Shown piece after piece: positions 16,968 to 60,683 of a stretch of 64,000 nt of DNA. The stretch lies in assembly GCA_031546925.1 (NCBI GenBank), contig JAVBJO010000051.1, forward strand, positions 301-64,300, given 5' to 3'. Source of the stretch: Rhodospirillaceae bacterium. GTDB lineage: Bacteria > Pseudomonadota > Alphaproteobacteria > Rhodospirillales > Magnetospirillaceae. A program made the translations under genes and the position numbers. Under the pieces are notes generated by a model. That model had not been told where the DNA came from, did no database searches, and worked only from the letters and a program-made list of their open reading frames with translations. Each line of letters starts with the position of its first letter. Position 1 is the stretch's first letter.

Positions 16968-17043
16968 GTCCCCTTCGTCTAGAGGCCTAGGACACCGCCC
17001 TCTCACGGCGGCAACACGGGTTCGAATCCCGTAGGGGACGCCA
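16968..17043 (+). tRNA. tRNA-Glu (anticodon CUC), CCA encoded
   Basis: Folded by hand. Acceptor GTCCCCT/AGGGGAC, anticodon stem CCGCC/GGCGG with loop CTCTCAC, T-arm ACGGG-TTCGAAT-CCCGT, and terminal GCCA. Confidence 0.9.
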
Positions 17044-17285
17044 CTTTCCGGGAAAAACCCCAGGAAAGCCACGCGCTTCAAGAGCGGCAGAAGCCTCCAA
17101 AAATCATTCTCGTAGAGCGCCTTGGTACAAACCAAGACGGCTGAAGGACGTTTTCCAACGGGGGGCAGTCCCTCCCCCGGCCACGGCAGCATTGCGAAAA
17201 GCCGTTGGTTCGCCTATTCCTGTTATCGGCTGTGGAGAGGATTTCCAGCGTCGCCGTTATTCTCTGTTGAACGCAAGGGGGCGTG

Positions 17286-20200
17286 ATGGCTGCGCTTGAG
17301 GATATTCACAAGGGGGCCAGGGTTCACGGTATCGTTTCGTCACAGGCGGTGCAGATTCTGTCGATGGAATGGGTGGGGGGGCTAGCCATAAGCGTGGTGT
17401 ACCGTGATCACAAGGGCGACACAAACACCGCAACGCTTTATCGGGAGGACGAGCCTCGCCTGGAGATACAAAGTCCGACCCAGCCTTTTGATGGGGATGG
17501 CGCCCTGTTTCGCCTTGTCACCGAGGCAAACCGGATTGAGCTTGCCCATCATTTTGATCCCTATCTGGCGATCCACACCAGCCTTATCGATCCCTTACCC
17601 CATCAAATTTCGGCGGTTTATGGCGTGATGCTGTCGCGTCAACCGCTCCGCTTTCTGCTTGCGGATGATCCTGGGGCGGGCAAGACCATTATGGCGGGAT
17701 TGCTCATCAAGGAATTGATAGCGCGCAGTGATCTGGAACGGTGCCTCATTGTCGCACCGGGGAGTTTGGTCGAACAATGGCAGGACGAGCTGAATGATAA
17801 ATTTGATTTAAAATTTGATATCTTCACCAATGATATGGCGGAGAATTCCCTCTCTGGGAATCCGTTTGAGGATCACGACCATCTGATTGTTCGTCTCGAT
17901 GCCCTGGCTCGGAATGAGGAGCTTCAGAAGAAGCTGATTCAATCTCGCGAGTGGGACATGATTATTTGTGATGAAGCGCATCGCATGTCGGCGTCTTATT
18001 TCAATGGTGAGACCAAGTACACGAAACGCTATCAGCTTGGTCAGAAATTGGGGCAAATTTGCCGTCATTTCTTGCTGATGTCGGCGACGCCGCACAGCGG
18101 CAGCGAGCAGAATTTCCAGCTTTTCATGGCTCTTCTGGATGGCGACCGGTTCGATGGCCGGTTTCGCGAAAACGCCGATAAGGCCGATATGATGCGGCGA
18201 TTGACGAAGGAAGACTTGCGGCGTTTCGATGGCAGCCCTCTTTTCCCCGAACGGTACGCCTATACCGTCAAGTACCCGTTATCGCCCAAGGAAGCGGCGC
18301 TTTACACCGCTGTGACCGCGTACGTTCGCGAAGAGATGAATCGCGTATTGCGCTTCGCCGCCGGTGAGGACAAGAAGCGAAACACGGTGGGTTTTGCGCT
18401 TCAGATCCTCCAGCGTCGACTGGCCTCGTCGCCGGCGGCTATTTACCAGTCTCTGCGGCGACGGCGCGAGCGACTGGAGAAGGAACTGACCGAGGCGCGT
18501 CAGAGTGCAAAGGGATGGAAGCCCAATTTCCCTGTTTCCGAGAATGAGGAGGAGGCTTTCGACGACGATCAAGAAGAGATTGACACGTTAGAAGCCGAAA
18601 TTTCCACAGGTGCAAGTTCCTCCGAGACCATTGAGGAGTTGTCGAAAGAAGTTGATACTCTCAAACGACTAGAGCAAGAAGCATTCAAAGTTCTCCATGC
18701 TGGGGAAGACGCCAAATGGACGCAGCTTAGCCGTATCCTCGACGACGATTTGATGCTTGATGCCGAGGGCGCGCGTCGTAAATTGATCATTTTCACCGAG
18801 GCCAAAGACACACTGCATTACCTACAAGAAAAGATCATCGCACGACTGGGCAAACCCGAGGCGGTGGAGGTCATCCATGGCGGTGTAAGCCGCGAGGCCC
18901 GCAGGGATGTCATCAAGCGCTTTATGCAGGACCGGGATTTGCTTGTTCTCGTCGCCAATGATGCGGCCGGCGAGGGTGTCAACCTGCAACGCGGTCACTT
19001 GATGGTGAACTATGATCTGCCGTGGAATCCCAACAAGATCGAGCAACGTTTTGGCCGCATCCACCGCATCGGCCAAACCGAGGTCTGCCACTTGTGGAAC
19101 TTGGTGGCCGCTGACACCCGGGAAGGGGAAGTCTATGGCCGATTGCTGGAAAAACTAGAAACAGCCCGCAAAGCCCTGGGCGGGCAAGTTTTCGATGTGC
19201 TTGGTGCGTTATTTGAAGGGATCGCGCTGAAGGATCTTCTGATCGAGGCGATCCAATATGGCGATGACCCCAAGACCAAGGCGAGCCTCTTCCAAAAGGT
19301 TGATGGCGCGGTCGATCAGGATCACTTGGTGGAGCTGCTCAAAAAGCGCGCCCTGACCAATGACAGCATGCCGGAAGCCAGGGTCGAGGAATTGCGGCTG
19401 GAGATGGAGCGTGCCGCGACCCAACGCCTCCAACCCCATCACATCCAAAGCTTTTTCGTCGAGGCCTTCCAGCACTTGGGCGGTCAGATGAAACGACGGG
19501 AGGAAGGACGATGGGAGATCACCCACGTCCCCTTGTGCTTGCGCGACCGCGACCGACAAATCGGTTTCCGCACGCCGTTGCAGCCCAAATACGAGCGGAT
19601 TTGCTTCGAGAAGACCCACATTCATCAACAGCCGGTGGCCGCTTTCCTCTGCCCCGGCCATCCCCTGCTCAAGGCGGTCCTCAGCGTGATCCGCGAGCGA
19701 TACGGACCCTTGATGCAGCAAGGAGCGATCCTCGTCGACAAAGCGGATTCGTCCGACGACGTAAGGGCGATTTTTTTACTGGAGCACAGTGTCCAAGACA
19801 GCCTAAGGATGTCCACGGATCGGCCGCATATTGTTTCCCGAAGGCTGCAATTCGCCACCGTGGATCGTCAAGGCCGCACGGCCAATGCGGGAATTGCCCC
19901 TCATCTCGATCTGCACCCCGCTACGGCAGAGGAGCGTGCCCTGGCCCTCACCCTCTGGAACACGGATTGGTTGACGGACGAACTGGAGAAACAGGTCGAG
20001 GACTTCGCCACGATCGAATTGGCCCGCCGCCATATTACAGAGGTCAGAACCCGCCGCTTGCCCGAGATCGAGAAGATCGAACAAGAGGTTCGGGAGTGCC
20101 TGACCAAGGGAATCAACTACTGGGATTTCAAAGCGGGGGAATTGAAGGAAGAAGAGCGTGCGGGCAAAAAGACGCGCCTGAGCTGGGAAAACGCCCAGCG

Positions 20201-20750
20201 CCGCGCCGACGATCTTCAGCAACGTCTGAAGCGACGGATGACCCTGTTGGCGCAGGAGAAAATTCTTGCCTCCCAAGCGCCGCACGTGCGCGGCAGGATG
20301 GTGGCCGTTCCGAAGCGCCTGCTGACCGCAGGGACGCCGACGTCCGGCTTTTGCGCGGACGCCCAAGCGCGCCAAGCCATCGAACAAGCGGCCATGCAGG
20401 CCGTCCTGAGCACGGAAAGGACACTCGGCAACACGCCGAAGGATGTTTCCGCGAAGAAATGCGGCTACGATATCGAATCCTACGATCCGAAAGCCAAGCA
20501 ATGGCGCTTCATCGAGGTCAAGGGACGCGTCAGCGGGGCCGAGAACGTGATGATCACACGCCAGGAAATCATCACCTCGCTTCATGAGCCGGAAAAATAT
20601 ATCCTCGCCGTGGTGTTGGTTGAGGAGGGTCGAGCGCACGAACCACGCTATATCCGGGGAGCCTTAGACACGCACGAACCCTCCTTCGAGAAAGCGGCCA
20701 TCCAGTTCAAGTTGGGCTGCTTGTTGGAGAAGTCCCGGGAACCCGCTTGA
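17286..20750 (+). CDS. SNF2/RapA-like superfamily-2 helicase fused to a C-terminal PD-(D/E)xK-like (DUF3883-type) domain
   Basis: Helicase motifs LADDPGAGKT (I), ICDEAHR (II), MSATP (III) and QRFGRIHRIGQ (VI). C-terminal segment KKCGYDIESYDPKAKQWRFIEVKGR supplies a D...E.K pattern. Confidence 0.85.
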   Translation: MAALEDIHKGARVHGIVSSQAVQILSMEWVGGLAISVVYRDHKGDTNTATLYREDEPRLEIQSPTQPFDGDGALFRLVTEANRIELAHHFDPYLAIHTSLIDPLPHQISAVYGVMLSRQPLRFLLADDPGAGKTIMAGLLIKELIARSDLERCLIVAPGSLVEQWQDELNDKFDLKFDIFTNDMAENSLSGNPFEDHDHLIVRLDALARNEELQKKLIQSREWDMIICDEAHRMSASYFNGETKYTKRYQLGQKLGQICRHFLLMSATPHSGSEQNFQLFMALLDGDRFDGRFRENADKADMMRRLTKEDLRRFDGSPLFPERYAYTVKYPLSPKEAALYTAVTAYVREEMNRVLRFAAGEDKKRNTVGFALQILQRRLASSPAAIYQSLRRRRERLEKELTEARQSAKGWKPNFPVSENEEEAFDDDQEEIDTLEAEISTGASSSETIEELSKEVDTLKRLEQEAFKVLHAGEDAKWTQLSRILDDDLMLDAEGARRKLIIFTEAKDTLHYLQEKIIARLGKPEAVEVIHGGVSREARRDVIKRFMQDRDLLVLVANDAAGEGVNLQRGHLMVNYDLPWNPNKIEQRFGRIHRIGQTEVCHLWNLVAADTREGEVYGRLLEKLETARKALGGQVFDVLGALFEGIALKDLLIEAIQYGDDPKTKASLFQKVDGAVDQDHLVELLKKRALTNDSMPEARVEELRLEMERAATQRLQPHHIQSFFVEAFQHLGGQMKRREEGRWEITHVPLCLRDRDRQIGFRTPLQPKYERICFEKTHIHQQPVAAFLCPGHPLLKAVLSVIRERYGPLMQQGAILVDKADSSDDVRAIFLLEHSVQDSLRMSTDRPHIVSRRLQFATVDRQGRTANAGIAPHLDLHPATAEERALALTLWNTDWLTDELEKQVEDFATIELARRHITEVRTRRLPEIEKIEQEVRECLTKGINYWDFKAGELKEEERAGKKTRLSWENAQRRADDLQQRLKRRMTLLAQEKILASQAPHVRGRMVAVPKRLLTAGTPTSGFCADAQARQAIEQAAMQAVLSTERTLGNTPKDVSAKKCGYDIESYDPKAKQWRFIEVKGRVSGAENVMITRQEIITSLHEPEKYILAVVLVEEGRAHEPRYIRGALDTHEPSFEKAAIQFKLGCLLEKSREPA

Positions 20751-20793
20751 CCCCCCTCTCCCCCTTCATCTCTTACGAATCGGAAGACGCCTT

Positions 20794-23622
20794 ATGCCCA
20801 AGTTGATCGAAGTCGCCATGCCTCTGGAGGCGATCAATGCGGCGTCGGTACGGGAAAAATCGATCCGGCATGGGCACCCTTCCACCTTGCATCTGTGGTG
20901 GGCACGGCGGCCTTTGGCGGCTTGCCGAGCGGTGTTGTTTGCGCAACTGGTGGATGATCCCTCCAGCCATCCCGACCAGTTTCCCACCGAAGACGCCATC
21001 ATTACCGAGCGGCAACGCCTGTTCGGCATTATCGAAAAGTTGGTGAAGTGGGAAAATTCCACCAACGAGGGGGTGCTGAACGAAGCCCGGGACGAAATCC
21101 GTAAGAGCTGCGGCGAGGTGTTGCCCTCCATCTACGATCCCTTCTCCGGCGGGTGTTCCATCCCCCTGGAGGCGCAACGTTTGGGCTTGCCTGCCTATGG
21201 CTCGGACTTGAATCCGGTGGCGGTGATGATCGGCAAGGCGATGATCGAGATCCCGCCGAAGTTCAAGAACCTTCCTCCCGCCCATCCCGGCATCAAGGAT
21301 CGTAACGAATATCGCAACGCCGAAGGACTGGCCGAGGATGTGCGGTATTATGGGGCGTGGATGCGGGAAAAAGCCTGGGAGCGCATCGGCCACCTCTACC
21401 CCCAGGTCGATCTGCCGCAAGCGCATGGCGGTGGCAAGGGGACGGTCATTGCGTGGATCTGGGCTCGGACCGTCTCAAGTCCCGATCCGGCTTTTGCCGG
21501 GGCACATACGCCTTTGATTAGTTCATTTGTTCTATCTGCTTATGCCGGGAGGGAAGTCATAATTGTTCCTTCTGTGGATAAAAATGAAAAAACAATTCAT
21601 TTTGCGATTAAGGATGGACCTTTCCAGATCTCCGACTTCGAGACAGCTCGTTTAGGCACAATGTCATCTAAAGCGAAGGGATTTTCCTGCCTTTATTCAA
21701 ATTCATCTATTCCTAGAGATTATGTTCGAGATGAAGCTAAGGCGGGGCGGCTCGGACAAAAATTAATAGCAATTGTTGCGGAAGGAAATAATGGCAGAGT
21801 ATATTGCAGCCCATCAGAATTGCACAAGGGGGTTTTAAATCATCTCCAGGATAAAATAAAATTAGAAGAAATTAGAGAGACGATTTTATCTGGAAAAGTC
21901 CCAACAAGAGCAGAGATGACAGGAGGGATTTGCTCAGCATATGGATTGTCAACCTGGGGAGATTTATTCACGGATCGCCAGTTAAATGCTTTATTAACTT
22001 TTTCCGATCTGTTTCCAAAATTACAAAAAACAATCGAAGCAGACGCAACAAAAGCCGGTTGGAGCGATGATGGCTTGGCATTGGCAAGTGGAGGAAAAGG
22101 CGCGCGAGCCTACGCCGAAGCTGTCAGCGTCTATCTCGCCTTCGCGGTAGATCGCCTCGCTGATGCTGGCAGTACTATTTGCACATGGGATTCCAGTCGA
22201 ACCACCGTCCGCAATACTTTTTCACGGCAAGCGATTCCCATGACTTGGGACTTTGCCGAGGGGAACCCTTTTTCCTCCTCTACCGGAAATTGGTCATCGT
22301 GTTGCGAATGGATCTGGAAAGTCATTAATAAATTTAAGCCAGAAGCCACAGGCATTCAGACTCAACAAGATGCTCAAGCTGCAAACTATAAAAAAAGTAT
22401 AGTTATAAGTACAGACCCACCATATTATGATAATATTGCCTATTCAATTCTTTCTGATTTTTTCTATTGCTGGCTTCGTCTTAATCTACGGGCAATTTAT
22501 CCAACTATTTTTGACGTTCTTTCTACACCGAAGACAGAGGAGCTTATCGCGATAGCCTCGCGTCATGGTGGAAAAGAAGGCGCCGAGCAGTTTTTTATTG
22601 AGGGCATGACCCAAGTCATCCGACGGATGGCCGAACATAATCACAATGACTACCCGGCGACGATTTACTACGCCTTCAAACAAAGCGAAATCAAAGACGA
22701 GGGGATCAGTTCGACCGGATGGGCAACCTTTCTTGAGGCGGTGATTTCAGCCGGTTATGCGGTGGTGGGGACATGGCCCATGCGCACGGAAATGGCCAAT
22801 CGTCTGGTGGCCTCGGGAACCAATGCGCTGGCCAATTCGGTCGTCCTGGTCTGCCGCAAGAGAGCCACCACCGCGAAAGCCGCCTCGCGCGCCGAATTCA
22901 TCCGTGCCCTGAAGGCGGAGTTGCCCAAGGCGATTGCCGCTCTTCAGGCGGCCAACATCGCCCCGGCGGACATGCCGCAATCGGCCATTGGTCCGGGCAT
23001 TGGGGTGTTCTCGCGCTATAAGGTCGTGTTGGAATCCGGCGATCATCCCATGTCGGTGAAAACGGCGCTCCAACTGATCAACCACGAACTGGACGACTAT
23101 CTGGGGGGCATTGAAGGCGAATTCGACGCCGATACCCGCTTCGCCATTACCTGGTTCGCGCAAAACGGCATGGAGGGCGGGGAATACGGGAAAGCCAACT
23201 CCATCGCTCAGGCGCGGGGCATTTCGGTTGAAAGCGTCAAACATGCGGGTATCGTGGCGAGCGTGGCCGGTCAGGTGCGCATCCTGCGACGCGAGGAGCT
23301 GGCGGCCCAATGGGACCCCGAGCAGGAAGGGCATCTGACCGTCTGGTTGTGCTGTCAACATCTGGTGCGAAGTCACGAGAAAGAGGGCGTGTCGCGCACC
23401 ACGCTCCACCTGCTCCGCCACATCGGCGATAAGGCGGAGGCGGTGAAAGACCTGGCCTATTGCCTCTATGATATCAGTGCCAACAAACGGCAAGATTCCA
23501 AGGAAGCGCTGGCTTACAATGCCCTGATTGCCGATTGGTCCGAGCTGCTCCGGGAAGCGGCGAAACACGAAGAAACGCCAAAAGAACAATTCACCTTAGG
23601 TCTGGGGGGAAGCACATCATGA
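20794..23622 (+). CDS. DUF1156-type DNA methyltransferase (N6-adenine/N4-cytosine class)
   Basis: N-terminus MPKLIEVAMPLEAINAASVREKSIRHGHPSTLHLWWARRPLAACRAV is the DUF1156 signature. SAM motif DPFSGGCSIP starts at 21136 and catalytic TDPPYYDN has DPPY at 22414-22425, about 420 aa apart. Confidence 0.85.
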   Translation: MPKLIEVAMPLEAINAASVREKSIRHGHPSTLHLWWARRPLAACRAVLFAQLVDDPSSHPDQFPTEDAIITERQRLFGIIEKLVKWENSTNEGVLNEARDEIRKSCGEVLPSIYDPFSGGCSIPLEAQRLGLPAYGSDLNPVAVMIGKAMIEIPPKFKNLPPAHPGIKDRNEYRNAEGLAEDVRYYGAWMREKAWERIGHLYPQVDLPQAHGGGKGTVIAWIWARTVSSPDPAFAGAHTPLISSFVLSAYAGREVIIVPSVDKNEKTIHFAIKDGPFQISDFETARLGTMSSKAKGFSCLYSNSSIPRDYVRDEAKAGRLGQKLIAIVAEGNNGRVYCSPSELHKGVLNHLQDKIKLEEIRETILSGKVPTRAEMTGGICSAYGLSTWGDLFTDRQLNALLTFSDLFPKLQKTIEADATKAGWSDDGLALASGGKGARAYAEAVSVYLAFAVDRLADAGSTICTWDSSRTTVRNTFSRQAIPMTWDFAEGNPFSSSTGNWSSCCEWIWKVINKFKPEATGIQTQQDAQAANYKKSIVISTDPPYYDNIAYSILSDFFYCWLRLNLRAIYPTIFDVLSTPKTEELIAIASRHGGKEGAEQFFIEGMTQVIRRMAEHNHNDYPATIYYAFKQSEIKDEGISSTGWATFLEAVISAGYAVVGTWPMRTEMANRLVASGTNALANSVVLVCRKRATTAKAASRAEFIRALKAELPKAIAALQAANIAPADMPQSAIGPGIGVFSRYKVVLESGDHPMSVKTALQLINHELDDYLGGIEGEFDADTRFAITWFAQNGMEGGEYGKANSIAQARGISVESVKHAGIVASVAGQVRILRREELAAQWDPEQEGHLTVWLCCQHLVRSHEKEGVSRTTLHLLRHIGDKAEAVKDLAYCLYDISANKRQDSKEALAYNALIADWSELLREAAKHEETPKEQFTLGLGGSTS

Positions 23623-26600
23623 GCAAGAGCATGCGCCAGTTCGTTTTCGAAGGCATGGAGCTTTTGCCCGATGCCTTGGCTCCCTTTGTCGAAAAACGGC
23701 TGGAAAGCGCCCTTCCCGCGCCTTGGCAGCTCCAAGCCGCCGAGAAGCTCAACTTGCGCCCCAACAGCCAGGGACTCATCACCTGGGATCAGGCCTCGCT
23801 TTTGGGGGCCATGGATCGCTTTTGGGCGGAAGCCTTCAAGGGTGCCCTGGGGAAAACAGAACGCTCCTGGGTCAACGAGCTGGCCGATGTTCGCAACAAG
23901 TTAGCCCACAACGAGCAATTCACCTACGATACGGCGGAGCGTGCCCTGGATACCCTGCGGCGTTTGATGGATTCCATCAGCGCGGAGGACACCGCAGAAC
24001 GCCTGACCAAGATGCGCGACACGATTTTGCGCACGAAGTTCACCGAACTTCAGCGCAATGAAGAGCGGAAAAAGACGCAGCGTGTTGAGATTTCGGTGGA
24101 ATCGCACATAATGGGCCTGTTGTCTTGGCGCGAAGTGGTCGAACCTTACCACGATGTCGCCAACGGCACGGCGCAACTGGCGGAATTTGCCGCCGACTTG
24201 GGCAAGGTTCATAAAGGCAGCGCCGCATCGGAATACCGCAACCCACAGGAATTTTTCGCGCGCACCTATTTGACCGAGGGCCTCAGTCAGTTGTTGGTCA
24301 ATGCCGCCAAGCGGTTGACCGACACGGGTGGGGATTCGGTGGTGGAACTCCAGACCAACTTCGGGGGTGGCAAGACTCACTCCATGTTGGCGCTCTATCA
24401 CATGGCGGGCCACGCCTCGGCCCAAGATCTCCCCGGACTGGACCAGTTGCTGAGCGAGCGCGAAGTGACCCTGCCCGCCAAGGTCAATCGGGCGGTGCTG
24501 GTGGGAACGGCACGGGGGCCGCTGGATGTCTTGACCATCCCCAACGGTCCCCAAATTCGCACCACCTGGGGCGAACTGGCTTGGCAATTGGGCGGAGCCG
24601 AAGCTTTCGCCTTGATCGCCGAAAATGACGCCAAGGGGATTGCACCCGGATCCAATCTTCTGGAGACCCTTTTCCGGCAATGTGCCCCCTGCCTGATCCT
24701 GATCGACGAGTGGGTGGCCTATTTGCGGCAAATCTACAAGATCGACGGGCTGCCTTCGGGCTCCTTCGACGCCAACTTGTCTTTCGTTCAGTCCCTGACC
24801 GAGGCGGTCAAGGCCAGTCCGGGAACCTTGCTTGTCGCCTCCCTCCCCGCCTCGCAAATCGAGGTCGGCGGCGAAGGGGGGCAAGAGGCGCTGGCTCGCT
24901 TGAAACAGACCTTTGCCCGCGTCGAAACCTCGTGGCGTCCCGCCAGCCAAGAGGAAAGCTACGAAATCGTCCGCCGTCGCCTGTTCAAGACCATCTCCGG
25001 CGACAAGGCGCACCACAAGGACAATACCGTCAAGCAATTCGCGCGACTCTACAAAGACAACGCGAGCGACTTCCCCCCCGGCTCCGCCGATGAGGATTAT
25101 CGTCGCAAGATGGATCGCGCCTATCCCATCCATCCCGAATTGTTCGATCAGCTTTACACCGGCTGGGGATCGTTAGAGAAGTTTCAACGCACGCGCGGCG
25201 TTCTCCGGCTGATGGCCCAAGTGGTTCACGAGCTGTGGATGGGGCACGATCCCGCCGTCATGATCATGCCGGGAAGCGTCGCCATCGCTTCCGAGCGCGT
25301 CGGGCCAGAGTTACTACATTACCTTGAAGGCAGTTGGCAGTCGATCATTTCGGGCGATGTGGATGGGTTCGGCTCGACGCCGTACAAAATCGACCAAGGT
25401 GCCCCCAACCTCAACCGCTGTTTTGCCACGCGGCGTATTGCACGCGCCATCTTCATGGGGACCGCCCCCACCTATCAGCAGAAGAACAAAGGTCTCGACG
25501 ATAAGCAGATCAACTTGGGAGTCGTGCAGCCCGGAGAACAACCCGCCCTGTTCGACGACGCCCTACGCCGCTTGACCAGTCAAGCCAAGTTCATGCACGC
25601 CGATCATGGACGGTATTGGTATTCCATGGCCGCGAGTCTCAACCGTCTGGCCGCAGATCGGGCGGATCAGCTGCAAGACGACGATGTGATGTTGATGATC
25701 AATGTGGAGCTTAAAAGCTACATTCATGGTCTCAAGGACCGGGGGCATTTCGAGACCGTTCAAGTGGCTTCGACCTCTTCCGCCGATATTCCCGACGAGA
25801 AAGGCATTCGCGCCGTCATCCTGAGAGTGGCGAACCCTCATAATGGCCGCGAGGGGTCGGAGGCCATGGCGCAGGCGAGAGACATTTTGCTCCATCGGGG
25901 CAGTGCGCCGCGCGTCTATCGCAATACGCTGGTGTTTCTCGCCGCAGACGCCCGTCAGCTCGACAATCTAAAGCGAATCACCCGATCCTGGATGGCTTGG
26001 GTGCACATCGTTGAAAATACCGCTCGGCTTGACCTCACCCAGAGCGACACCCTGCTCGCCAAGAAGAAGCTGGAGGAAACGGCGAAGACCCTGAAGACCT
26101 GTTTACACGAAACATGGTGCTACCTCCTCTATCCCGAGCAAGAAGACGCCAGGATCGAAGCGCAGTGGTCTTCTGTCAAAATCACCTCTCTTCAGGAAGG
26201 CTTGCTCGTATCCGCCAGTAAGATGCTGGTGAAAAATGAGAAATTATTGCTGGAATTAGGACCGCAACGTCTTGATCTCGATTTGCAAAAGTACATCTGG
26301 CATGGAAAACCCCATCTTTCCCTGAAGGATCTGTGGGAGCATCTCAACCGCTTCCCCTATCTGCCTCGGCTCAAAAGCCAAGACGTGTTGGTGAAAGGAG
26401 TTCACCTCGCCATCAGCGGCATGATCCCCGGTCCCTTCGCTTATGCCGAAGGCTGGGACGAAAAATCCCAGAGCTATCAGGGCTTGGTGGTTGAAAAAGC
26501 CTCTGAGACCGTCGTGGTGCGCATCGATGACAACAGCGTTATCGTTGCCCCCGAGAGCGCAGAGGCCCATCGCCCCCGCCCCGCCTCGGCCGCCGATCGG

Positions 26601-26918
26601 CCTGGTGGAGAAACCTCATCGGGCGATGGAGTATCTCCGGCAGGGGCAACCATCGATAAGGTTACCGGGGCAACGCTCCAAGAGCGGAAACTGACCCGCT
26701 TCCGGGGAACCGTCATGATTCCAGCGGAACGACCGGCGGGAAAATTCCAGCAGATCATCGAAGCCATCGTTGCTCAACTCACCACCCTTCCCGGCAGTGA
26801 AGTCAGCTTGAAATTTGAAATCGACGCCGAAGTTCCTGGCGGTCTTGATCCTGCCAAAGTGCGGACCTTGATGGAAAACGCGAATACCCTCAATTTTATC
26901 GACAAAAAGATCGATTGA
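23619..26918 (+). CDS. HEPN (Rx4H) plus DUF499-type P-loop ATPase (BrxC/PglY-like ATPase family)
   Basis: ATG 23619 overlaps the methylase stop (ATGA). RNKLAH motif at 23892-23909, Walker A FGGGKTHS (GKT at 24369-24377), and Walker B CLILIDEW. Confidence 0.8.
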   Translation: MSKSMRQFVFEGMELLPDALAPFVEKRLESALPAPWQLQAAEKLNLRPNSQGLITWDQASLLGAMDRFWAEAFKGALGKTERSWVNELADVRNKLAHNEQFTYDTAERALDTLRRLMDSISAEDTAERLTKMRDTILRTKFTELQRNEERKKTQRVEISVESHIMGLLSWREVVEPYHDVANGTAQLAEFAADLGKVHKGSAASEYRNPQEFFARTYLTEGLSQLLVNAAKRLTDTGGDSVVELQTNFGGGKTHSMLALYHMAGHASAQDLPGLDQLLSEREVTLPAKVNRAVLVGTARGPLDVLTIPNGPQIRTTWGELAWQLGGAEAFALIAENDAKGIAPGSNLLETLFRQCAPCLILIDEWVAYLRQIYKIDGLPSGSFDANLSFVQSLTEAVKASPGTLLVASLPASQIEVGGEGGQEALARLKQTFARVETSWRPASQEESYEIVRRRLFKTISGDKAHHKDNTVKQFARLYKDNASDFPPGSADEDYRRKMDRAYPIHPELFDQLYTGWGSLEKFQRTRGVLRLMAQVVHELWMGHDPAVMIMPGSVAIASERVGPELLHYLEGSWQSIISGDVDGFGSTPYKIDQGAPNLNRCFATRRIARAIFMGTAPTYQQKNKGLDDKQINLGVVQPGEQPALFDDALRRLTSQAKFMHADHGRYWYSMAASLNRLAADRADQLQDDDVMLMINVELKSYIHGLKDRGHFETVQVASTSSADIPDEKGIRAVILRVANPHNGREGSEAMAQARDILLHRGSAPRVYRNTLVFLAADARQLDNLKRITRSWMAWVHIVENTARLDLTQSDTLLAKKKLEETAKTLKTCLHETWCYLLYPEQEDARIEAQWSSVKITSLQEGLLVSASKMLVKNEKLLLELGPQRLDLDLQKYIWHGKPHLSLKDLWEHLNRFPYLPRLKSQDVLVKGVHLAISGMIPGPFAYAEGWDEKSQSYQGLVVEKASETVVVRIDDNSVIVAPESAEAHRPRPASAADRPGGETSSGDGVSPAGATIDKVTGATLQERKLTRFRGTVMIPAERPAGKFQQIIEAIVAQLTTLPGSEVSLKFEIDAEVPGGLDPAKVRTLMENANTLNFIDKKID

Positions 26919-27014
26919 AGCCGAACCTGGGGGGTAAGCGGAGAGGCTGCCCCCTCCGTTCGAGGGTGACGCAACCCTTGACCCAAAAGTCCGCTCTCAG
27001 GTACAAATGGGGAT

Positions 27015-27358
27015 ATGCATGAGCTATCCCTTACGGAAGGTGTCCTCCGTACCCTTGAAGAGCTGGCGAGCACACAAGGGTTTTCCTCGGTCAAGACCAT
27101 CTGGTTGGAGATTGGCGATCTGTCTCAGGTCGCGCCAGAGGCGATGCTGTTCTGCTTCGAGGCCATCGCCAAGACCAGTCCGCTGACCGCCGGAGCCACC
27201 TTAGAAATCATCCGCATCCCCGGTCGTGCCCTCTGCCCCCTGTGCGAGGTCATCGTCGAGGTCGCTCATCGGGTCGAGCTGTGTCCCTGTTGCAAGGAAA
27301 ACGTCCTCTCCGTCATTGGCGGAGAGGAGATGCGGATCAAAGAATTGGAGGTCGAGTG

Positions 27359-27359: not shown

Positions 27360-28224
<865 letters not shown>

Positions 28225-28228
<4 letters not shown>

Positions 28229-29313
28229 GAGCATCTTCACGGATTGCCCAGGAGATTCGTTTGCCTCGGTCTGGTCCCTCGGGACTGGCGGTGGGGGCTT
28301 TCCTTAAGAATACCGTTTGCGTGACCAAGGGTGACGTGGCGTTGGTCTCGGTCGGGCACGACGACTTGAGCGATCCCGCAGCAGTGGCCGCTTTCGAGAC
28401 CTCGGTGGAGGCCTTGGTGGAGGCCGCCGACGTCACCCCCACCTGGGTGGCCCATGATCTCCATCCAGATTTTGCCAGCACGCGCTTTGCTTTGGGGCTG
28501 GATGTCCCCCCCGTGCCGGTTCAGCACCACCACGCCCATGCCGCAGCCATCGCCGCCGAGCACGGGTATGACGGCGCCTTGCTGGGCTTGAGCCTCGACG
28601 GCTTTGGTCTGGGAGAGGAACGGCAATCGTGGGGTGGGGAATTGCTCGCCTGTAGCGCCGAGGGGCGTTTCCGGCGGTTGGGTCATCTGGCCCTGCTCCC
28701 TCAACCGGGTGGCGATGTGGCCGCGCGCGAGCCGTGGCGCATGGCCGCTGCCGTTCTCCATGTTTTGGGGCGAGGCGATGAAATTGCCACGCGCTGGCCC
28801 GCCTTTCCCGCATCAAGACGGCTGGGGGTCCTCTTGGAGCAGAAGGTGAATGCGCCGCTGACCTCCTCGGCGGGGCGGCTGTTTGATGCGGCTTGCGGCC
28901 TGCTCGACGTGGTCCCCGTGAGCCAGATGGAGGGGCAAGCCCCCCAGGCCCTGGAAAAGCAGGTGACAGCGCCCACCGTCCTCCCCGGAGGGTGGACCTT
29001 CGACTGCGGCGTGCTGAGCTTCCTCCCCCTGTTGACTCACCTGGCCGATCATCCCGAAGACGGGGCCAATCTGTTTCACGGCACCCTGATAGCCGGGCTG
29101 ACCCAGTGGTGCGCCTGGGGCGCTCAACAAACCGGACTTTCGACCATCGCCTTGGGGGGTGGCTGTTTCTTCAATCGCGTTCTCAGCGCGGGAATGACAG
29201 AGGCGCTGCCGCAGCAGGGCTTACGTCCGCTGTGCGCCGTGAAGCTGTCTCCCGGAGACGCCGCGCTGTCGTTGGGCCAGGCGTGGGTGGCCGTACAACG
29301 CGCCTTATCATGA
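28225..29313 (+). CDS. hypF: truncated HypF-like carbamoyltransferase (Kae1-like C-terminal domain only)
   Basis: The 362-aa protein begins MRASSR with an ATGA overlap on hypB. It contains [10 protein letters not shown] and [16 protein letters not shown] see no acylphosphatase, Zn-finger or YrdC-like segment upstream. Confidence 0.75.
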
Positions 29314-29329: not shown

Positions 29330-29551
29330 ATGTGTCATGCTCTGCCCGCCCAAATCCTGGAGCTTCTTCCCGACCAACAAGCGAGGGTTCAGTTGGGCGG
29401 TGTGTCCAAGGTGGTGTCCCTCGCCATGGTCGAAGATGCCGCGCCGGGAGATTACGTGCTGATTCACGTGGGCTTCGCCTTGGTGCGTCTGGATCCCGAG
29501 GAAGCCGAAAAAACCCTGGCGTTGTTTGCCCAGGCGGATGCCACCCCATGA
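29330..29551 (+). CDS. hypC: hydrogenase assembly chaperone HypC
   Basis: N-terminal MC(H)ALPAQI, with the essential Cys2; 73 aa. Confidence 0.9.
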   Translation: MCHALPAQILELLPDQQARVQLGGVSKVVSLAMVEDAAPGDYVLIHVGFALVRLDPEEAEKTLALFAQADATP

Positions 29552-30675
29552 AATACATCGATGAATTTCGCGATGGCGAGCGCGCTCGTCATCTCGCCTC
29601 CGCCATTGCCGCCACCGTCGAACCGGGGCGAGTCTATCGCATCATGGAGTTTTGCGGCGGTCACACCCATGCCATCTCGCGCTACGGGTTAGAGGATATT
29701 CTCCCCGCTGCGGTGCGCTTGATCCATGGCCCCGGCTGCCCGATCTGCGTCCTGCCGGTGGGGCGGATCGACAGCGCGGTGCGCTTGGCCAAGGAGCCGG
29801 GAGTGATCCTCTGTTCCTACGGCGATACCATGCGGGTGCCGGGATCGGATGGAACCTCCTTGTTGCGCGCCAAGGCGCAAGGGGCCGATGTGCGCATGGT
29901 TTACTCGGCGCTGGATAGCGTCACCCTCGCGCGGGAGAACCCCGATAAAACCGTGGTGTTCTTCGCCATCGGCTTCGAGACCACCACCCCCCCCACGGCG
30001 GTGGCGCTGAAGCAGGCACAAGGGGGGGGACTCAGCAATTTCTTGGTGTTTTGTAATCATGTGCTGACGCCTCCGGCCATTGGACGGATTCTGGATGCTC
30101 CGGGGGAGACGGTGCCGTTGGATGCCTTCATTGGCCCGGCCCATGTCTCAACGCTGATCGGCATGGCGCCCTATGAGCCGTTCGTGCACAAGTATGGCCG
30201 TCCGGTGGTCATCGCCGGGTTCGAGCCGTTGGATGTACTCCAGTCGGTGTTGATGCTGATTCGCCAGATCAACCAAGGCGTGGCCAAGGTGGAGAACGAA
30301 TACACCCGGGCGGTCACCCGGGAGGGCAATCGCGTGGCCCAGGCCCTGGTGACCGAGGTGTTCGAGCTGCGCGACACCTTCGAATGGCGCGGATTGGGCG
30401 ATATCCAACGTTCGGCCTTGAAACTGCGCCCAGCCTTTGCCGCCTTCGATGTGGAAAACCGCTGGGAGATTCCCTCGCACTCTCCGCCCGACCATCGGGC
30501 TTGCGATTGCGGCGCGATCTTGCGTGGGGTCAAGCGCCCCACCGACTGCAAGCTGTTCGGCAAGGCCTGCACACCGGAAACCCCCATGGGAAGCTGCATG
30601 GTTTCGGGCGAGGGCGCTTGCGCCGCCGCTTGGGCCTATGGCCGCTTCAGAGATACCCCCGTCACCACCGCTTAA
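29548..30675 (+). CDS. hypD: hydrogenase maturation Fe-S protein HypD
   Basis: MKYIDEFRD start (ATGA overlap with hypC), then FCGGHTH, GPGCPICV and a C-terminal Cys cluster. Confidence 0.9.
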   Translation: MKYIDEFRDGERARHLASAIAATVEPGRVYRIMEFCGGHTHAISRYGLEDILPAAVRLIHGPGCPICVLPVGRIDSAVRLAKEPGVILCSYGDTMRVPGSDGTSLLRAKAQGADVRMVYSALDSVTLARENPDKTVVFFAIGFETTTPPTAVALKQAQGGGLSNFLVFCNHVLTPPAIGRILDAPGETVPLDAFIGPAHVSTLIGMAPYEPFVHKYGRPVVIAGFEPLDVLQSVLMLIRQINQGVAKVENEYTRAVTREGNRVAQALVTEVFELRDTFEWRGLGDIQRSALKLRPAFAAFDVENRWEIPSHSPPDHRACDCGAILRGVKRPTDCKLFGKACTPETPMGSCMVSGEGACAAAWAYGRFRDTPVTTA

Positions 30676-34593: not shown

Positions 34594-35001
34594 ATGCAAC
34601 AGCCGGTCTTTATCCTAAAAGTTTATGATGAAGCGATGAGCCTCATTGTTGAAACCAGAAACTATATTGCTTTTGTCGAGGCAAGGCGGCGACAGAGCCT
34701 TGATGAGATGACAAGCCTCCGTGCCTCGTGCGAAGCTCTGCGTGTCACCTCACGTCTTATCCAAGTCATGGCATGGCTGATGATGCAAAGAGCCGTCCAT
34801 AACGGTGAGATCTCTCATGAGGAGGCTCTCAGCGATCGGAATAGACTCTCCGGGGAGGTATTCTGTCTTGATGATGCTTTTGCCGAAGATGAATCTTTAC
34901 CAGGTGGGCTCAGGAGTTTATTGGACAGAAGCTATCGTCTTTATGTGCGGACCATTCGCTTGGAACGGCAGATGGTCCTCGCGGGGGTCAAGAGTCCCTG
35001 A
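34594..35001 (+). CDS. DUF1465 / RcdA-like protein
   Basis: VYDEAMSLIVETRNYIAF...LRVTSRLIQVMAWLMMQRAVHNGEIS pattern. Start is uncertain among TTG 34540, ATG 34558 and ATG 34594. Confidence 0.55.
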   Translation: MQQPVFILKVYDEAMSLIVETRNYIAFVEARRRQSLDEMTSLRASCEALRVTSRLIQVMAWLMMQRAVHNGEISHEEALSDRNRLSGEVFCLDDAFAEDESLPGGLRSLLDRSYRLYVRTIRLERQMVLAGVKSP

Positions 35002-35233
35002 CCCTTTGCGGGGGTGCGGGGGGAAACGTCCCCCCGGCGAGACGGAATACCAAGATTCTTCGAGGATTGGTCGTGGCGAGGAGGTTATCGACGCCTTGTC
35101 CGGGATGGAGGGGCAAAGGCTTCTCATTTTTGTGACCCGCTAACCGATTCTGGATTCAGGGATTCTCTGGGGGTTTGAGGAATATATTGGGATTTATGTA
35201 GGGTTTTTACGGGGTTGAGGGTGTGGGGTGGGG

Positions 35234-35306
35234 GATTTTGGATGGGAAAGATTTTGGACTCGGGTTCGGGGAGATGAAGGCTGATTGATGGGGGATTTTG
35301 GACTGG
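35234..35306 (+). repeat. three direct copies of GATTTTGGA(Y) in a G/T-skewed spacer
   Basis: Copies begin at 35234, 35250 and 35294. Related GGGATT(C/T) units occur at 35158-35204. Confidence 0.6.
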
Positions 35307-35357
35307 AAGAAAAATGTGCTGGCGGTAGAATGTCTATGAGAAATATGGGAGGAAGAT

Positions 35358-35804
35358 ATGAAATTTTTCTTTGTTTTCATGGTCGTATGCCTCTTTTCTG
35401 GGCAGGCGATGGCGGCTGGCCCTAAGGAAGCACGGGATTTTATAAAAAGACTCGATGCCGCAGTGGCGGAAGGGAGGAAAATTGTAAAACCAGGCGTGCA
35501 AACCAAAGATATTGCAAATCATAGCAGAAAAATGCAGGAACTCGTTGCTGAAGGAGAAGAGAGATTTGGAAAATTTGAATTTTCTCAGCCTTACGGATAT
35601 TGCACTTCAGCAGCCGGACAAGCAAACGCTATTTGGATGGATACATACAGTCCATCACATCATAATCCTGAGGGTATGAAGCTGACCATTAGAATTTTCA
35701 AGGAAAAGAAAAAAGATTGCCTCGACATGGCGCGAAAGGTGGAAACAGGAAAATGGCCAGAGAAAGAAGAAGAAGGGTTGGATGGCGAGGCACACCCTTT
35801 CTGA
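35358..35804 (+). CDS. hypothetical secreted protein (AT-rich gene)
   Basis: Signal peptide MKFFFVFMVVCLFSGQAMA and RBS GGGAGGAAG upstream. No family recognised. Confidence 0.6.
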   Translation: MKFFFVFMVVCLFSGQAMAAGPKEARDFIKRLDAAVAEGRKIVKPGVQTKDIANHSRKMQELVAEGEERFGKFEFSQPYGYCTSAAGQANAIWMDTYSPSHHNPEGMKLTIRIFKEKKKDCLDMARKVETGKWPEKEEEGLDGEAHPF

Positions 35805-35858
35805 AAAAATAGGAGAGGCCCGATCGTAACCCTATCGGAGCCTCTTCCCTTTACAGGG

Positions 35859-60682: not shown

Positions 60683-60683
60683 A

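Follow-up and report, generated by a model that had tools for sequence, protein, structure and literature searches.

Gene content and setting of the locus

Three large co-directional genes, hmaA, hmaB and hmaC, lie on the 3′ side of a tRNA-Glu(CTC) gene in the window (the whole 64,000-nucleotide stretch of DNA that was analysed). An ORF check of the sequence agreed with the initial annotation on gene coordinates, product lengths (1154, 942 and 1099 aa), the 43-nt gap between hmaA and hmaB and the ATGA overlap of the hmaB stop with the hmaC start. The locus has the following features.

16968..17043, + strand: tRNA-Glu(CTC) (ARAGORN; Rfam tRNA, 58.4 bits), left neighbour, outside the system
17044..17285, + strand: hmaA leader, the 242 nt between the tRNA and hmaA (sequence)
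17286..20750, + strand: hmaA, 1154 aa, Swi2/Snf2 (RapA/BrxHII-like) translocase with a C-terminal PD-(D/E)xK nuclease (PADLOC, Pfam)
20794..23622, + strand: hmaB, 942 aa, DUF1156-type N6-adenine (amino) DNA methyltransferase (PADLOC, Pfam)
23619..26918, + strand: hmaC, 1099 aa, ATG at 23619, HEPN-fused DUF499 AAA+ (ORC/Cdc6-clade) ATPase (PADLOC, Pfam)
26922..26962, + strand: GC-rich hairpin directly 3′ of the hmaC stop (RNA fold)

Each of the three hma starts is preceded by a Shine-Dalgarno-like run; that of hmaA, AAGGGGG at 17275–17281, lies in the leader, upstream of the ATG at 17286 and an in-frame GTG at 17283. The leader contained no ORF, no regulator gene and no sigma-70 consensus site, and its position is occupied in close relatives by a BrxR/WYL regulator gene. 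This copy had neither a BrxR regulator nor genes embedded between the hma genes. Of Hma loci, 62.7% carry unrelated defence genes there. Downstream of hmaC, where hypA starts at 27015, the RNA fold of 26915–27016 had an energy of −39.9 kcal/mol (z = −2.1), and the hairpin, which lacks a U-tract, is a candidate operon terminator.

The operon is placed in a Magnetospirillum-like chromosome, with tRNA-Glu on one side and the hyp operon on the other, and its neighbours are housekeeping genes. As the initial annotation had stated, the neighbourhood contained no PglZ, PLD, DUF1998 or classical restriction enzyme gene; BrxA, BrxB/F, BrxL and flanking defence genes were also absent from it. We found neither an integrase nor an att repeat or scar at the locus, the 3′ end of tRNA-Glu had no second copy anywhere in the window, and a tRNA lay within 10 kb in none of the eight related loci scanned. 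Thus, the adjacency to a tRNA, which the title of the initial annotation names, is genuine (242 nt upstream of hmaA) but incidental.

Domains and catalytic motifs of the three proteins

Pfam profile searches recovered all the domains that had been assigned by eye (SNF2 helicase, DUF3883 nuclease, DUF1156, HEPN and DUF499). The E-values, between 1e-17 and 0, and the ORF lengths of 942–1154 codons leave no room for chance matches. The PADLOC profiles HmaA, HmaB and HmaC all matched near full length: HmaA at 1510.6 bits (protein aa 1–1152 against positions 1–1171 of the 1176 in the profile), HmaB at 1148.1 and 1131 bits and HmaC at 915.8 bits over aa 165–1096. Every motif quoted beforehand was located, at aa 127, 229, 587, 1060 and 1075 of HmaA, 115 and 541 of HmaB, and 92, 249 and 359 of HmaC.

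17664..17687, + strand: HmaA helicase motif I (Walker A), DDPGAGKT, aa 127–134
17970..17981, + strand: HmaA helicase motif II, DEAH, aa 229–232, invariant in the alignment
19044..19076, + strand: HmaA helicase motif VI, QRFGRIHRIGQ, aa 587–597, invariant in the alignment
20379..20654, + strand: HmaA NOV_C/DUF3883 PD-(D/E)xK nuclease domain, aa 1032–1123 (Pfam NOV_C, E 9e-21)
21136..21165, + strand: HmaB SAM-binding motif I, DPFSGGCSIP, aa 115–124, conserved across phyla
21450..22560, + strand: hmaB central tract, about codons 221–590, compositionally foreign and hypervariable
22414..22425, + strand: HmaB catalytic motif IV, DPPY, aa 541–544, invariant in 43 homologues
23652..23981, + strand: HmaC Swt1-like HEPN domain, aa 12–121 (Pfam HEPN_Swt1, E 3e-26)
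23892..23909, + strand: HmaC Rx4H motif, RNKLAH, aa 92–97
24363..24383, + strand: HmaC Walker A, GGGKTHS, aa 249–255, invariant
24693..24713, + strand: HmaC Walker B, LILIDEW, aa 359–365, invariant in close homologues, with conservative substitutions in distant ones

HmaA contains the Pfam domains SNF2-rel_dom, ResIII, Helicase_C and NOV_C, the last being the same domain as DUF3883. Among solved structures, RapA is the closest to it (E 3e-33), and it also matches PADLOC profiles labelled BrxHI|BrxHII (E 6e-96 and 3e-87). Motif I is kept in the orthologues of four other loci, with DDPGSGKT in one, and T134 would be the counterpart of T136 of Halomonas HmaA, as judged by the motif with the proteins unaligned. 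In the Halomonas protein, the R610A substitution of the motif VI arginine abolished defence, and D1084, E1104, K1106 and E1121 were needed for both T4 defence and nicking (PMC11232893). The equivalents of the latter here, in the domain that holds GYDIES (aa 1060) and FIEVKG (aa 1075), are D1062, E1077, K1079 and E1094; they are candidate catalytic residues of the nuclease, and this D...ExK...E pattern was conserved across the loci compared.

HmaB has DUF1156 at aa 8–78 and a match to MTase_II (E 3e-33). A MethyltransfD12 match at motif I was weak and below threshold; in this motif, D115, P116, F117, S118, G119 and G120 were invariant among 43 homologues. The (D/N/S)PP(Y/F/W) signature of motif IV typifies amino-methyltransferases (N6A/N4C) and sets them apart from m5C enzymes. 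GC3 of the central tract was 0.25–0.50, as against 0.62–0.80 across the remaining gene, and protein identity fell to 46% at aa 241–400, the least conserved segment, from 80% at aa 1–240. We regard the tract as comprising a putative target-recognition insert and the surroundings of motif IV. Its hypervariable, low-GC3 part just upstream of DPPY has the position of the specificity region of MtsC, the MANTIS methylase, which lies 94–177 aa upstream of DPPY and where a TRD swap alters specificity (bioRxiv 10.64898/2026.09.23.753747).

HmaC combines HEPN_Swt1 with DUF499, a pair found in all 120 of its best database homologues. The pattern RN[KR]xxH was kept in the HmaC orthologues of five other loci from different phyla, and R92 and H97 were invariant in 43 homologues. 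The predicted structures of HmaB and HmaC (pLDDT 64 and 45, respectively) were of too low quality to corroborate the published domain architectures. Compared with orthologues of 40–70% identity, the motifs of the helicase, the nuclease, the methylase and the HEPN domain and the Walker motifs were all conserved, and the operon copy is therefore apparently intact.

Identity and distribution of the operon

The profile matches support the proposal that this is a methylase-linked defence module and identify it, from its sequence, as a complete, apparently intact copy of an anti-phage system already described under the names Hma and Type-1 DUF499-centred BREX-related (BR) system (PMC12839542, NAR 2026). 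The copy is of the common type, with HEPN at the N terminus of the ATPase and a PD-(D/E)xK nuclease at the C terminus of the helicase. The first description of the architecture dates from 2013 and already covered the HEPN-ATPase and helicase-DUF3883 fusions (PMC3710099); the later definition of Hma counted 1,638 instances across 26 phyla (Payne 2021, PMC8565338). The initial annotation was thus right that comparative-genomic surveys had noted the association. Type-1 BR systems occur in 2,446 taxa; 1,370 are HEPN-fused and 79% have a nuclease-fused helicase (PMC12839542). That annotation, which knew of no experimental characterisation and implied an unrecognised system, had missed both the tests of Halomonas HmaA (PMC11232893) and the mechanism of MANTIS (bioRxiv 10.64898/2026.09.23.753747). 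None of the NCBIfam equivalog cut-offs set for proteins of DISARM, Dpd or Gao_RL type was reached, as a new system might predict, but the near-full-length matches to named Hma profiles and the exact architecture in four papers (PMC8565338, PMC11232893, PMC12839542, PMC3710099) leave that reading practically no probability, and we rejected it. The observation was thus correct, but not new.

The same gene order and strand were found in Rhizorhapis, Desulfobacteraceae, Eisenbacteria, WOR-3, Neomegalonema, Acidobacteriota, Magnetospirillum SS-4, Kaistia and a Bradyrhizobium conjugative plasmid. The trio is thus conserved as a unit, with an order common to at least six phyla. The ATPase family comprised 1,581 representatives of 50%-identity clusters at E<=1e-30, and HEPN was present in 111 of the best 150. 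Plasmids also carry copies: 123 do, including 23 conjugative ones. Proteins with about 71% identity to HmaC came from many alphaproteobacterial orders, whereas for the housekeeping protein HldE the best matches were confined to the Magnetospirillum group; the patchy distribution of hma therefore resembles horizontal transfer.

Proposed mechanism and alternative readings

Our best explanation, which we hold with high confidence, is a complete, compact Hma (anti-phage/anti-plasmid) copy; its likely mechanism is the one suggested by homology with MANTIS and by the one tested HmaA. In MANTIS (Gao_RL), the four-gene sister Type-2 BR system characterised biochemically and structurally in a preprint of September 2026, the methylase, loaded by an AAA+ ATPase, hemimethylates asymmetric sites and guides a helicase-nuclease; restriction proceeds via the nuclease, the effector needs all its partners, and a methylase knock-out is non-toxic since the methylase supplies targeting (bioRxiv 10.64898/2026.09.23.753747). 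In the likely mechanism, HmaC, an ORC/Cdc6-clade AAA+ ATPase, would load HmaB onto DNA at short sites, probably asymmetric ones, that the variable central insert of HmaB selects. HmaB would methylate adenine (N6) of host DNA, probably on one strand only, as a self mark, and the HmaB–HmaC complex on sites of unmodified incoming DNA would license HmaA, which would track DNA by its Swi2/Snf2 motor and nick or cut it by the NOV_C nuclease. HmaC would probably contribute a second effector, its HEPN domain, which would be directed against RNA and may cause abortive infection if DNA restriction fails. For this locus we infer every one of these steps, methylation itself and HEPN RNase activity included. 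HmaC and HmaB matched the NCBIfam models DUF499_antiphage (E 2e-49) and DUF1156_antiphage (E 4e-39), and HmaA matched phospholipD_antiphage (E 8e-53) in its helicase part only; judging from their names, we take these models to represent MANTIS/Gao_RL proteins. All three matches were far below the equivalog cut-offs, so the mechanism is transferred from MANTIS by analogy. Unlike MANTIS, in which MtsB is required for methylation, Type-1 systems lack MtsB (bioRxiv 10.64898/2026.09.23.753747).

A second difference from MANTIS is that the Halomonas HmaA sufficed alone against T4. Halomonas meridiana HmaA by itself protects E. coli against T4 about 100-fold, its NOV_C domain being a Mn2+-dependent nickase; it is non-toxic without HmaB, and T4 propagated on an HmaB-expressing host does not escape it (Liu 2024, PMC11232893). 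This behaviour does not fit simple restriction-modification logic. Moreover, among 1,079 hmaA loci, hmaB is present in 85% and hmaC in 81%, so that some lack them (PMC11232893). Together with the defence genes often embedded between hma genes, these findings speak for an HmaA that, like Nhi or Hna, acts autonomously as a helicase-nuclease sensor-effector; it would sense a phage-replication feature or modified DNA and need no methylation mark, HmaB and HmaC forming a separate or regulatory module or an independent defence. However, T4 DNA is glucosyl-hydroxymethylated, and the T4 test therefore says little about adenine methylation. Non-toxicity without the methylase is likewise seen in MANTIS and is compatible with a model like restriction-modification, and co-occurrence, fixed order and translational coupling (here the ATGA overlap) across phyla point to one machine. 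An autonomous HmaA is thus a possibility to be taken seriously, but a doubtful one.

The relation to BREX bears on a further reading, exclusion by a replication block at unmethylated sites, with nuclease and HEPN as back-up only and no DNA degradation. The three proteins are reported homologues of BrxC, PglXI and BrxHII of Type-3 BREX (PMC12839542), in keeping with the BrxHI|BrxHII-labelled matches of HmaA. The initial statement that the module does not fit BREX holds in that, lacking PglZ, it is not canonical BREX, yet such systems are formally classed as Type-1 BREX-related (PMC12839542). We consider exclusion without degradation improbable, given the absence of PglZ, BrxA, BrxB/F and BrxL, the strict conservation of the PD-(D/E)xK residues, which defence needs in the tested homologue, and restriction via the nuclease in MANTIS. 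Still less credible, to the point of being very improbable, is a non-defence housekeeping role such as RapA-like transcription recycling with an orphan regulatory methylase. The kinship of HmaA with RapA and the chromosomal site among housekeeping genes, with no flanking defence genes, would suit it, but Hma is reported to lie, in general, apart from other defence systems. Against it also stand the patchy distribution, the plasmid-borne copies, and the fusion of nuclease and HEPN toxin domains to the motors.

Architecture of the hma operon and its family assignment

The initial annotation had described, directly after a tRNA-Glu gene, a methylase-linked defence module of three long co-directional genes. 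We confirmed the three open reading frames, found all of the quoted motifs in their places and, by a Pfam scan of all three proteins, upheld the domain assignments. The features of the locus are as follows.

16968–17043, tRNA-Glu(CTC), upstream of hmaA
17286–20750, + strand, hmaA, 1154 aa from ATG, with an in-frame GTG one codon upstream
20794–23622, + strand, hmaB, 942 aa
23619–26918, + strand, hmaC, 1099 aa
26922–26962, GC-rich hairpin directly 3′ of the hmaC stop codon

The hmaA and hmaB genes are 43 nt apart, and the stop codon of hmaB and the start codon of hmaC share the sequence ATGA, giving a 4-nt overlap. A purine-rich, Shine-Dalgarno-like run lies 5′ of each of the three start codons. 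The leader upstream of hmaA (242 nt) contains no regulator gene, and scans for promoter and terminator consensus sequences returned no more sites than shuffled controls and none in the leader. The 9.6-kb operon is contiguous and HEPN-bearing, contains neither embedded genes nor a separate regulator, and is apparently intact as judged from its sequence.

Searches with profile HMMs and PADLOC, which had been proposed as a check, gave near full-length matches to HmaA, HmaB and HmaC. The helicase-nuclease HmaA matched PDLC00659 with an E-value of 0 (1510.6 bits; residues 1–1152 on positions 1–1171 of the 1176 in the profile). Its Pfam domains are SNF2-rel_dom, ResIII, Helicase_C and NOV_C, the ResIII match being only a generic match to the helicase domain, and a sequence search of the PDB led from HmaA to RapA. 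NOV_C, the same domain as DUF3883, occupies residues 1032–1123 (E = 9e-21), with D1062, E1077, K1079 and E1094 conserved; helicase motifs I, II and VI and the nuclease signature D...ExK...E are kept in comparison with orthologues from other phyla. The methylase HmaB carries DUF1156 at residues 8–78 (E = 2.4e-30) and matched the HmaB profiles PDLC00660 and PDLC00661 (1148.1 and 1131.1 bits) over residues 3–932/935.

The ATPase HmaC contains DUF499 (E = 9.5e-32) and HEPN_Swt1 (E = 3.4e-26) and matched PDLC00662 with an E-value of 9e-276 (915.8 bits; residues 165–1096 on positions 1–937 of 941). The HEPN domain lies outside this profile, which begins at residue 165, where HEPN and its linker end. 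The Walker A, Walker B and HEPN Rx4H motifs are intact, and they are kept in orthologues from other phyla and in 42 closer homologues. HEPN_Swt1 was found together with DUF499 in all of the 120 best HmaC matches in a 90%-clustered database, and HEPN was present in 111 of the 150 best HmaC cluster representatives; HEPN-less relatives are ~930–960 aa long, and their alignments begin at query residue ~165. A sequence search of the PDB gave no match for HmaC, and its AlphaFold2 model (pLDDT 44.8) was too poor to define a domain architecture, the set of homologues being too uniform (88% mean column identity).

All of the elements by which PADLOC defines Hma were found, namely the HmaA, HmaB and HmaC profiles and one strand/spacing rule: the three genes lie on the + strand, in one copy each, with no gene between them, where up to three between neighbours are allowed. 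[quoted passage not shown] Markers of Type-2 and Type-3 BR systems (a DUF3780 gene, HKD/PLD on the helicase, PglZ and iSTAND) were found neither in HmaA nor in the neighbouring genes between 8.4 and 38.4 kb; the PLD_Helicase and phospholipD_antiphage profiles aligned to the helicase part of HmaA alone. By its sequence, the locus is an ordinary member of an already described and widespread family, called Hma in PADLOC and equivalent to Type-1 BR.

This family has been described under several names. Anantharaman et al. (2013) defined an "Ava_2192" family, in which a Swt1-like HEPN domain is fused to an AAA+ ATPase overlapping DUF499, in an operon with restriction-modification (R-M) components and an SNF2 helicase fused to DUF3883, a novel restriction-endonuclease-fold domain (PMC3710099). 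Payne et al. (2021) introduced Hma ("helicase, methylase, ATPase") from 1,638 operons in 26 phyla, with the same genes, order, strand and domains as in the window, including HEPN on the ATPase and NOV_C on the helicase (PMC8565338). A 2024 preprint from the same group counted 1,485 distinct Hma loci and reported that they mostly lie away from other defence systems; in 62.7% of them, other defence genes were embedded between the hma genes, whereas the window copy has none. The systems were renamed Type-1 DUF499-centred BR in a 2026 NAR paper covering 2,446 taxa, with 1,370 HEPN-fused ATPases and a nuclease fused to 79% of the helicases (PMC12839542). According to that paper, the helicase contains TUDOR, inactive REase and alpha+beta domains, the ATPase has wHTH units as well as a C-terminal RRM, and the methylase ends in an HTH triad, a fine architecture that our models of HmaB and HmaC were too poor to bear out.

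Comparison with related defence systems

The locus was not assigned to DISARM, Dpd or Gao_RL because the NCBIfam matches to these systems were only sub-threshold. Gao_RL, also named MANTIS or Type-2 BR, is a four-gene sister system, and we take the NCBIfam anti-phage DUF499, DUF1156 and PLD-helicase models, from their names, to represent its proteins. The window proteins matched these models with E-values of 2e-49, 4e-39 and 8e-53, respectively, but with scores of 168.5, 134.6 and 179.9 against equivalog cut-offs of 1200, 1000 and 1100. MANTIS shares with the window a DUF499 AAA+ ATPase and an SF2 helicase-nuclease effector, and its counterpart of HmaB is a DUF1156-type N6A methylase with an internal target recognition domain (TRD) upstream of DPPY (bioRxiv 10.64898/2026.09.23.753747). 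The fourth MANTIS gene, mtsB (DUF3780 in PMC12839542, DUF3870 in the MANTIS preprint), has no equivalent in the operon. The MANTIS nuclease is an N-terminal PLD/HKD domain and HEPN is absent, whereas the window nuclease is a C-terminal PD-(D/E)xK domain and HEPN is present. Membership of MANTIS was rejected on the scores far below the cut-offs and the absence of a fourth gene and of a PLD domain.

The initial annotation had held the module apart from BREX. This is right in so far as PglZ, BrxA and BrxF are absent, but the Type-1 BR proteins have been argued to be homologues of BrxC, PglXI and BrxHII of Type-3 BREX, the ATPase-methylase-helicase core being reported as homologous (PMC12839542). 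HmaA matched the PADLOC profiles labelled BrxHI/BrxHII with E-values of 6e-96 and 3e-87. Type-3 BREX, however, has PglZ, BrxA and BrxF, and the window helicase carries a predicted active nuclease. Canonical BREX (types 1–6) was rejected, as the neighbourhood contained no PglZ, BrxA, BrxB or BrxL and HmaC had no BrxC/DUF6079 match at E ≤ 0.01.

Class 1 DISARM also combines an SNF2 helicase (DrmD) with an adenine methylase (DrmMI), and HmaA matched the DrmD profiles of PADLOC (E = 2e-120) and NCBIfam (E = 1.6e-109). It was rejected because the DrmD score of 367.7 was below the cut-off of 610 and no DrmA, DrmB (DUF1998) or DrmC (PLD) was encoded nearby. Dpd was rejected on a sub-threshold NCBIfam match to DpdE, and classical Type I/III R-M on the lack of an S subunit and of any match of HmaB to a Type I/III Mod family. 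Type III and Type ISP R-M systems are analogous, following the MANTIS authors, in asymmetric-site hemimethylation, a methylase-directed helicase-nuclease and ATP-driven communication between sites. They are not homologous as a set: the Hma operon has no Res/Mod pair and encodes an additional AAA+ loader and HEPN.

The methylase and a proposed mechanism

In HmaB, motif I is at residue 115 and DPPY at residue 541, with a variable insert in between; this order of motif I, insert and motif IV resembles that of alpha-class Dam-type enzymes. Motifs I and IV are kept in orthologues of other phyla and in 42 closer homologues, and PCQ/ENV-type motifs are absent from HmaB. A PADLOC Type II methylase profile matched strongly (E = 3e-33), and the core with the insert removed gave a single Pfam match, to the Dam-like MethyltransfD12, which was below threshold (E = 0.003). 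Because of DPPY, the absence of PCQ/ENV-type motifs, the Dam-like motif order and the Dam/Type II profile matches, we read HmaB as a probable N6-adenine (possibly N4-cytosine) amino-methyltransferase, not an m5C enzyme. HmaB was called an m5C methyltransferase in the 2021 Hma paper (PMC8565338) and is labelled an adenine methylase in PADLOC-DB 2.0 and in the 2026 papers; the former label seems erroneous. The AlphaFold2 model of HmaB, made from a 43-sequence alignment, had a mean pLDDT of 63.7 with disordered catalytic loops and was too weak to define a domain architecture. Foldseek comparison of this model with the PDB brought up nothing but generic Rossmann SAM-methyltransferases, none of which reached E ≤ 1e-3, and a sequence search of the PDB gave no match for HmaB.

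Codons ~221–590 of hmaB (nt ~21450–22560) have a GC3 of 0.25–0.50, as compared with 0.62–0.80 on either side. This tract coincides with the least conserved protein segment, the hypervariable insert, and stops just past DPPY. The notion that the drop is unique to the window gene was rejected; the dip is a family trait, since hmaB of five alphaproteobacterial loci (L007, L009, L010, L012 and L015 of those fetched for comparison) also shows it, less deeply. In MANTIS, specificity resides in the equivalent segment, where a swap of an 83-residue TRD segment upstream of DPPY switched it (bioRxiv 10.64898/2026.09.23.753747). The shared dip suggests that recognition cassettes have been exchanged recurrently in the family, and the compositionally foreign centre of hmaB is consistent with an evolution of Hma specificity by such exchange.

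The initial annotation knew of no experimental characterization, a statement that is now outdated. HmaA of Halomonas meridiana, which is the only experimentally tested Hma component, has the same Snf2 + Helicase_C + NOV_C architecture as window HmaA and, alone, shields E. coli from T4, not from T5, T7 or EEP (Liu et al. 2024, PMC11232893). Its motif VI arginine mutant lost defence, its motif I threonine mutant gained it, and a quadruple D/E/K/E mutant of NOV_C gave none; the isolated C-terminal domain nicked supercoiled plasmid with Mn2+. Both the motor and the PD-(D/E)xK nickase are thus needed, and over-expression of HmaB left T4 sensitivity unaltered (PMC11232893). By motif position, the tested residues correspond to T134, R591/R594, D1062, E1077, K1079 and E1094 of the window protein. 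Septu and other genes are embedded in the Halomonas locus, whereas the window operon is contiguous; the Halomonas HmaC gene (2,877 bp) has the HEPN-less length, whereas window HmaC is HEPN-fused.

The sister system MANTIS has been dissected in a preprint of 24 September 2026. There, MtsA (the DUF499 AAA+ protein) loads the methylase MtsC on asymmetric 6-bp sites, MtsC with MtsB and ATP carries out adenine hemimethylation, and restriction by the PLD-helicase MtsD requires all four proteins, with a preference for inverted site pairs (bioRxiv 10.64898/2026.09.23.753747). By analogy, MANTIS is the best available mechanistic model for the window operon. With membership of Hma established from the profile matches, we infer from homology with MANTIS that HmaC would be an ATP-dependent loader and scaffold that puts HmaB on its sites. 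Two tasks would fall to HmaB, the marking of self DNA, probably through hemimethylation of an asymmetric motif, and sequence recognition for restriction; the motor-nuclease effector would be HmaA. A putative role of the HEPN domain of HmaC as a back-up RNase, put forward in 2013 and again in 2026, is plausible.

Three points fit this scheme imperfectly. The scores of the window proteins fall well short of the equivalog cut-offs for the NCBIfam models equated here with MANTIS, and Type-1 systems have no MtsB, which MANTIS requires for methylation. The third is that Halomonas HmaA acts on T4 alone and is harmless without HmaB. In the main rival reading, the family identity is kept but HmaA would act autonomously as sensor and effector, with HmaB and HmaC in accessory roles, as the activity of HmaA by itself might indicate. 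Its harmlessness has a parallel in MANTIS, where deletion of the methylase is non-toxic since the methylase provides targeting (bioRxiv 10.64898/2026.09.23.753747). We consider this autonomous logic a serious possibility, although less likely than not. The MANTIS-like scheme might also be extended. In the HEPN-fused Type-1 form, where no MtsB-like co-activator exists, HmaC could be both a loader and a second, RNA-level arm: detection of phage nucleic acid would fall to its RRM-like C-terminal domain, which is hypervariable, and the putative HEPN RNase would become active on ATP-dependent assembly. We think such an arm unlikely; if it existed, one three-gene operon would couple methylation-based DNA restriction to an abortive-infection RNase.

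As a discovery, the operon is of little weight, its architecture having been published since 2013 and its sister system explained biochemically. Being compact and without embedded genes, it is a convenient construct for questions that concern the whole family: whether HmaB hemimethylates asymmetric sites, whether it needs HmaC in the absence of MtsB, whether HmaA needs its partners, and whether HEPN is an RNase.

Distribution and setting of the locus

Conservation of the trio as a unit, which the annotation had proposed to test, was borne out by gene tables and by tblastn searches in which the three window proteins were compared with loci retrieved through HmaC. A scan of a genome collection for HmaC with strict peptide patterns gave 8 loci, which we supplemented with exact-protein look-ups and tblastn against plasmids. 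By tblastn, the A-B-C order and strand were the same in Rhizorhapis, a sphingomonad (60–70% identity), and in Desulfobacteraceae, Eisenbacteria, WOR-3, Neomegalonema and Acidobacteriota (37–62% identity); the contigs from Planctomycetota and Anaerolineales were too short to display all three genes. The gene tables showed the same order in Magnetospirillum sp. SS-4, a metagenomic contig, Kaistia and a conjugative Bradyrhizobium plasmid. The distance from hmaA to hmaB, 43 nt in the window, was 455–487 nt in two loci and 1.7–5.6 kb in four others, and in three further loci the gene tables revealed embedded genes in this interval. These spacings and embedded genes agree with the published embedding pattern of Hma.

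Between hmaA and hmaB, the Kaistia locus (L012, 2311–7061) encodes an embedded 1417-aa protein with a weak SACS-family Pfam match and a 160-aa protein. At the same place, the Bradyrhizobium plasmid pBb323S2c (L015, 452–6058) has three small hypothetical genes and one for a 1408-aa 'ATPase'. The large, unannotated genes are candidates for Hma-embedded defence genes.

An exhaustive search of 1.84 billion cluster representatives yielded 7,618 HmaC relatives at E ≤ 1e-3 and 1,581 at E ≤ 1e-30. Homologues were present on 123 plasmids, of which 23 are conjugative, whereas the phages in the collections searched carried none. The window Hma proteins are 66–73% identical to their nearest database entries. 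HmaC is ~71% (70–72%) identical to proteins of Rhizobium, Agrobacterium, Devosia, Kaistia, Phenylobacterium, Dongia and Magnetospirillum SS-4, and the homologues of these alphaproteobacteria have a mean column identity of 88% in a 43-sequence alignment that includes the window protein. This pattern suggests a recently spreading, partly plasmid-borne clade to which the window copy does not belong, standing on an older branch of its own. In the closest relatives, which are from Magnetospirillum sp. SS-4 and from a metagenomic contig whose HmaC is 72% identical, hmaA is directly preceded by a gene for a BrxR-type WYL regulator (L009, 2802–3686; L010/L011, 2290–3138, overlapping the hmaA start), whereas the window copy has none, which raises the question of how the operon is regulated.

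The host belongs to the Rhodospirillales and is Magnetospirillum-like, all of the best matches of its housekeeping protein HldE being from Magnetospirillum, Paramagnetospirillum and Phaeospirillum (60–68% identity). The operon is flanked by housekeeping genes on both sides. Upstream of it are sdhCDAB, a MarR-family regulator gene, hldE, an SNase-like gene and the tRNA-Glu gene, and downstream are hypA, hypB, a short hypF, hypD, hypE and genes for a chemoreceptor, Hsp20 and DUF1465; none of ten neighbour genes had a meaningful match to PADLOC models. The tRNA gene, stressed in the annotation, does adjoin the operon, but the adjacency is incidental, because the operon has no integrase within 9 kb, its flanks on the tRNA and hypA sides share no direct repeats, the tRNA 3′ end has no second copy, and none of the 8 related loci scanned had a tRNA gene within 10 kb. 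Since the closest genomes (HldE 67–68% identical) are not syntenic, hldE being followed by queF and queG, insertion cannot be demonstrated directly by comparison with an empty site. Indirect signs of horizontal origin are the GC3 of the three hma genes (0.58–0.70, against 0.71–0.74 in flanking genes) and the flat HmaC identity across orders.

Among the downstream genes, that for HypF (28126–29313, + strand; at most 395 aa) matched only the Kae1-like C-terminal domains (HypF_C and HypF_C_2); the acylphosphatase, zinc-finger and YrdC parts that full-length HypF also has were not matched. The hypD open reading frame (29332–30675) is extended by ~84 residues on the N-terminal side of the HypD domain, at a place where hypC might be expected.

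The nearest mobile element is a Mu-like prophage that begins at ~36.4 kb, with the following features.

36405–64000, Mu-like prophage, extending beyond the right edge of the window and separated from the Hma operon by ~9.5 kb of the same chromosome
36405–36992, − strand, CI-type HTH repressor
38400–40616, MuA transposase
40673–41431, MuB-like AAA ATPase; a DUF3164 gene is also present
49940–51337, large terminase
51350–52888, Mu portal
52875–54182, Mu F
54551–55567, Mu protease I
58294–59808, tail sheath
60585–63059, tape measure

Inside the prophage, just upstream of an open reading frame at 46312–46944, an Rfam match to sRNA-Xcc1 lies at 46208–46291 on the + strand (62 bits against a gathering score of 53; E = 9e-9). 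The stretch at 35000–36400, from the DUF1465 gene to the prophage repressor, is low in GC (0.475–0.49), with a strongly positive GC skew (+0.29 at 35001–36000). It encodes a 148-aa protein with a signal-peptide-like N-terminus (35358–35804, + strand) and a 110-aa protein with a hydrophobic segment (35859–36191, − strand), neither with a family match, and is probably left-end cargo of the Mu-like prophage. At the other side of the window, a YkuD-type L,D-transpeptidase gene (4893–5573, − strand) has GC contents of 0.46, 0.40 and 0.49 by codon position in a region of ~60% GC, and may be a small horizontal acquisition.
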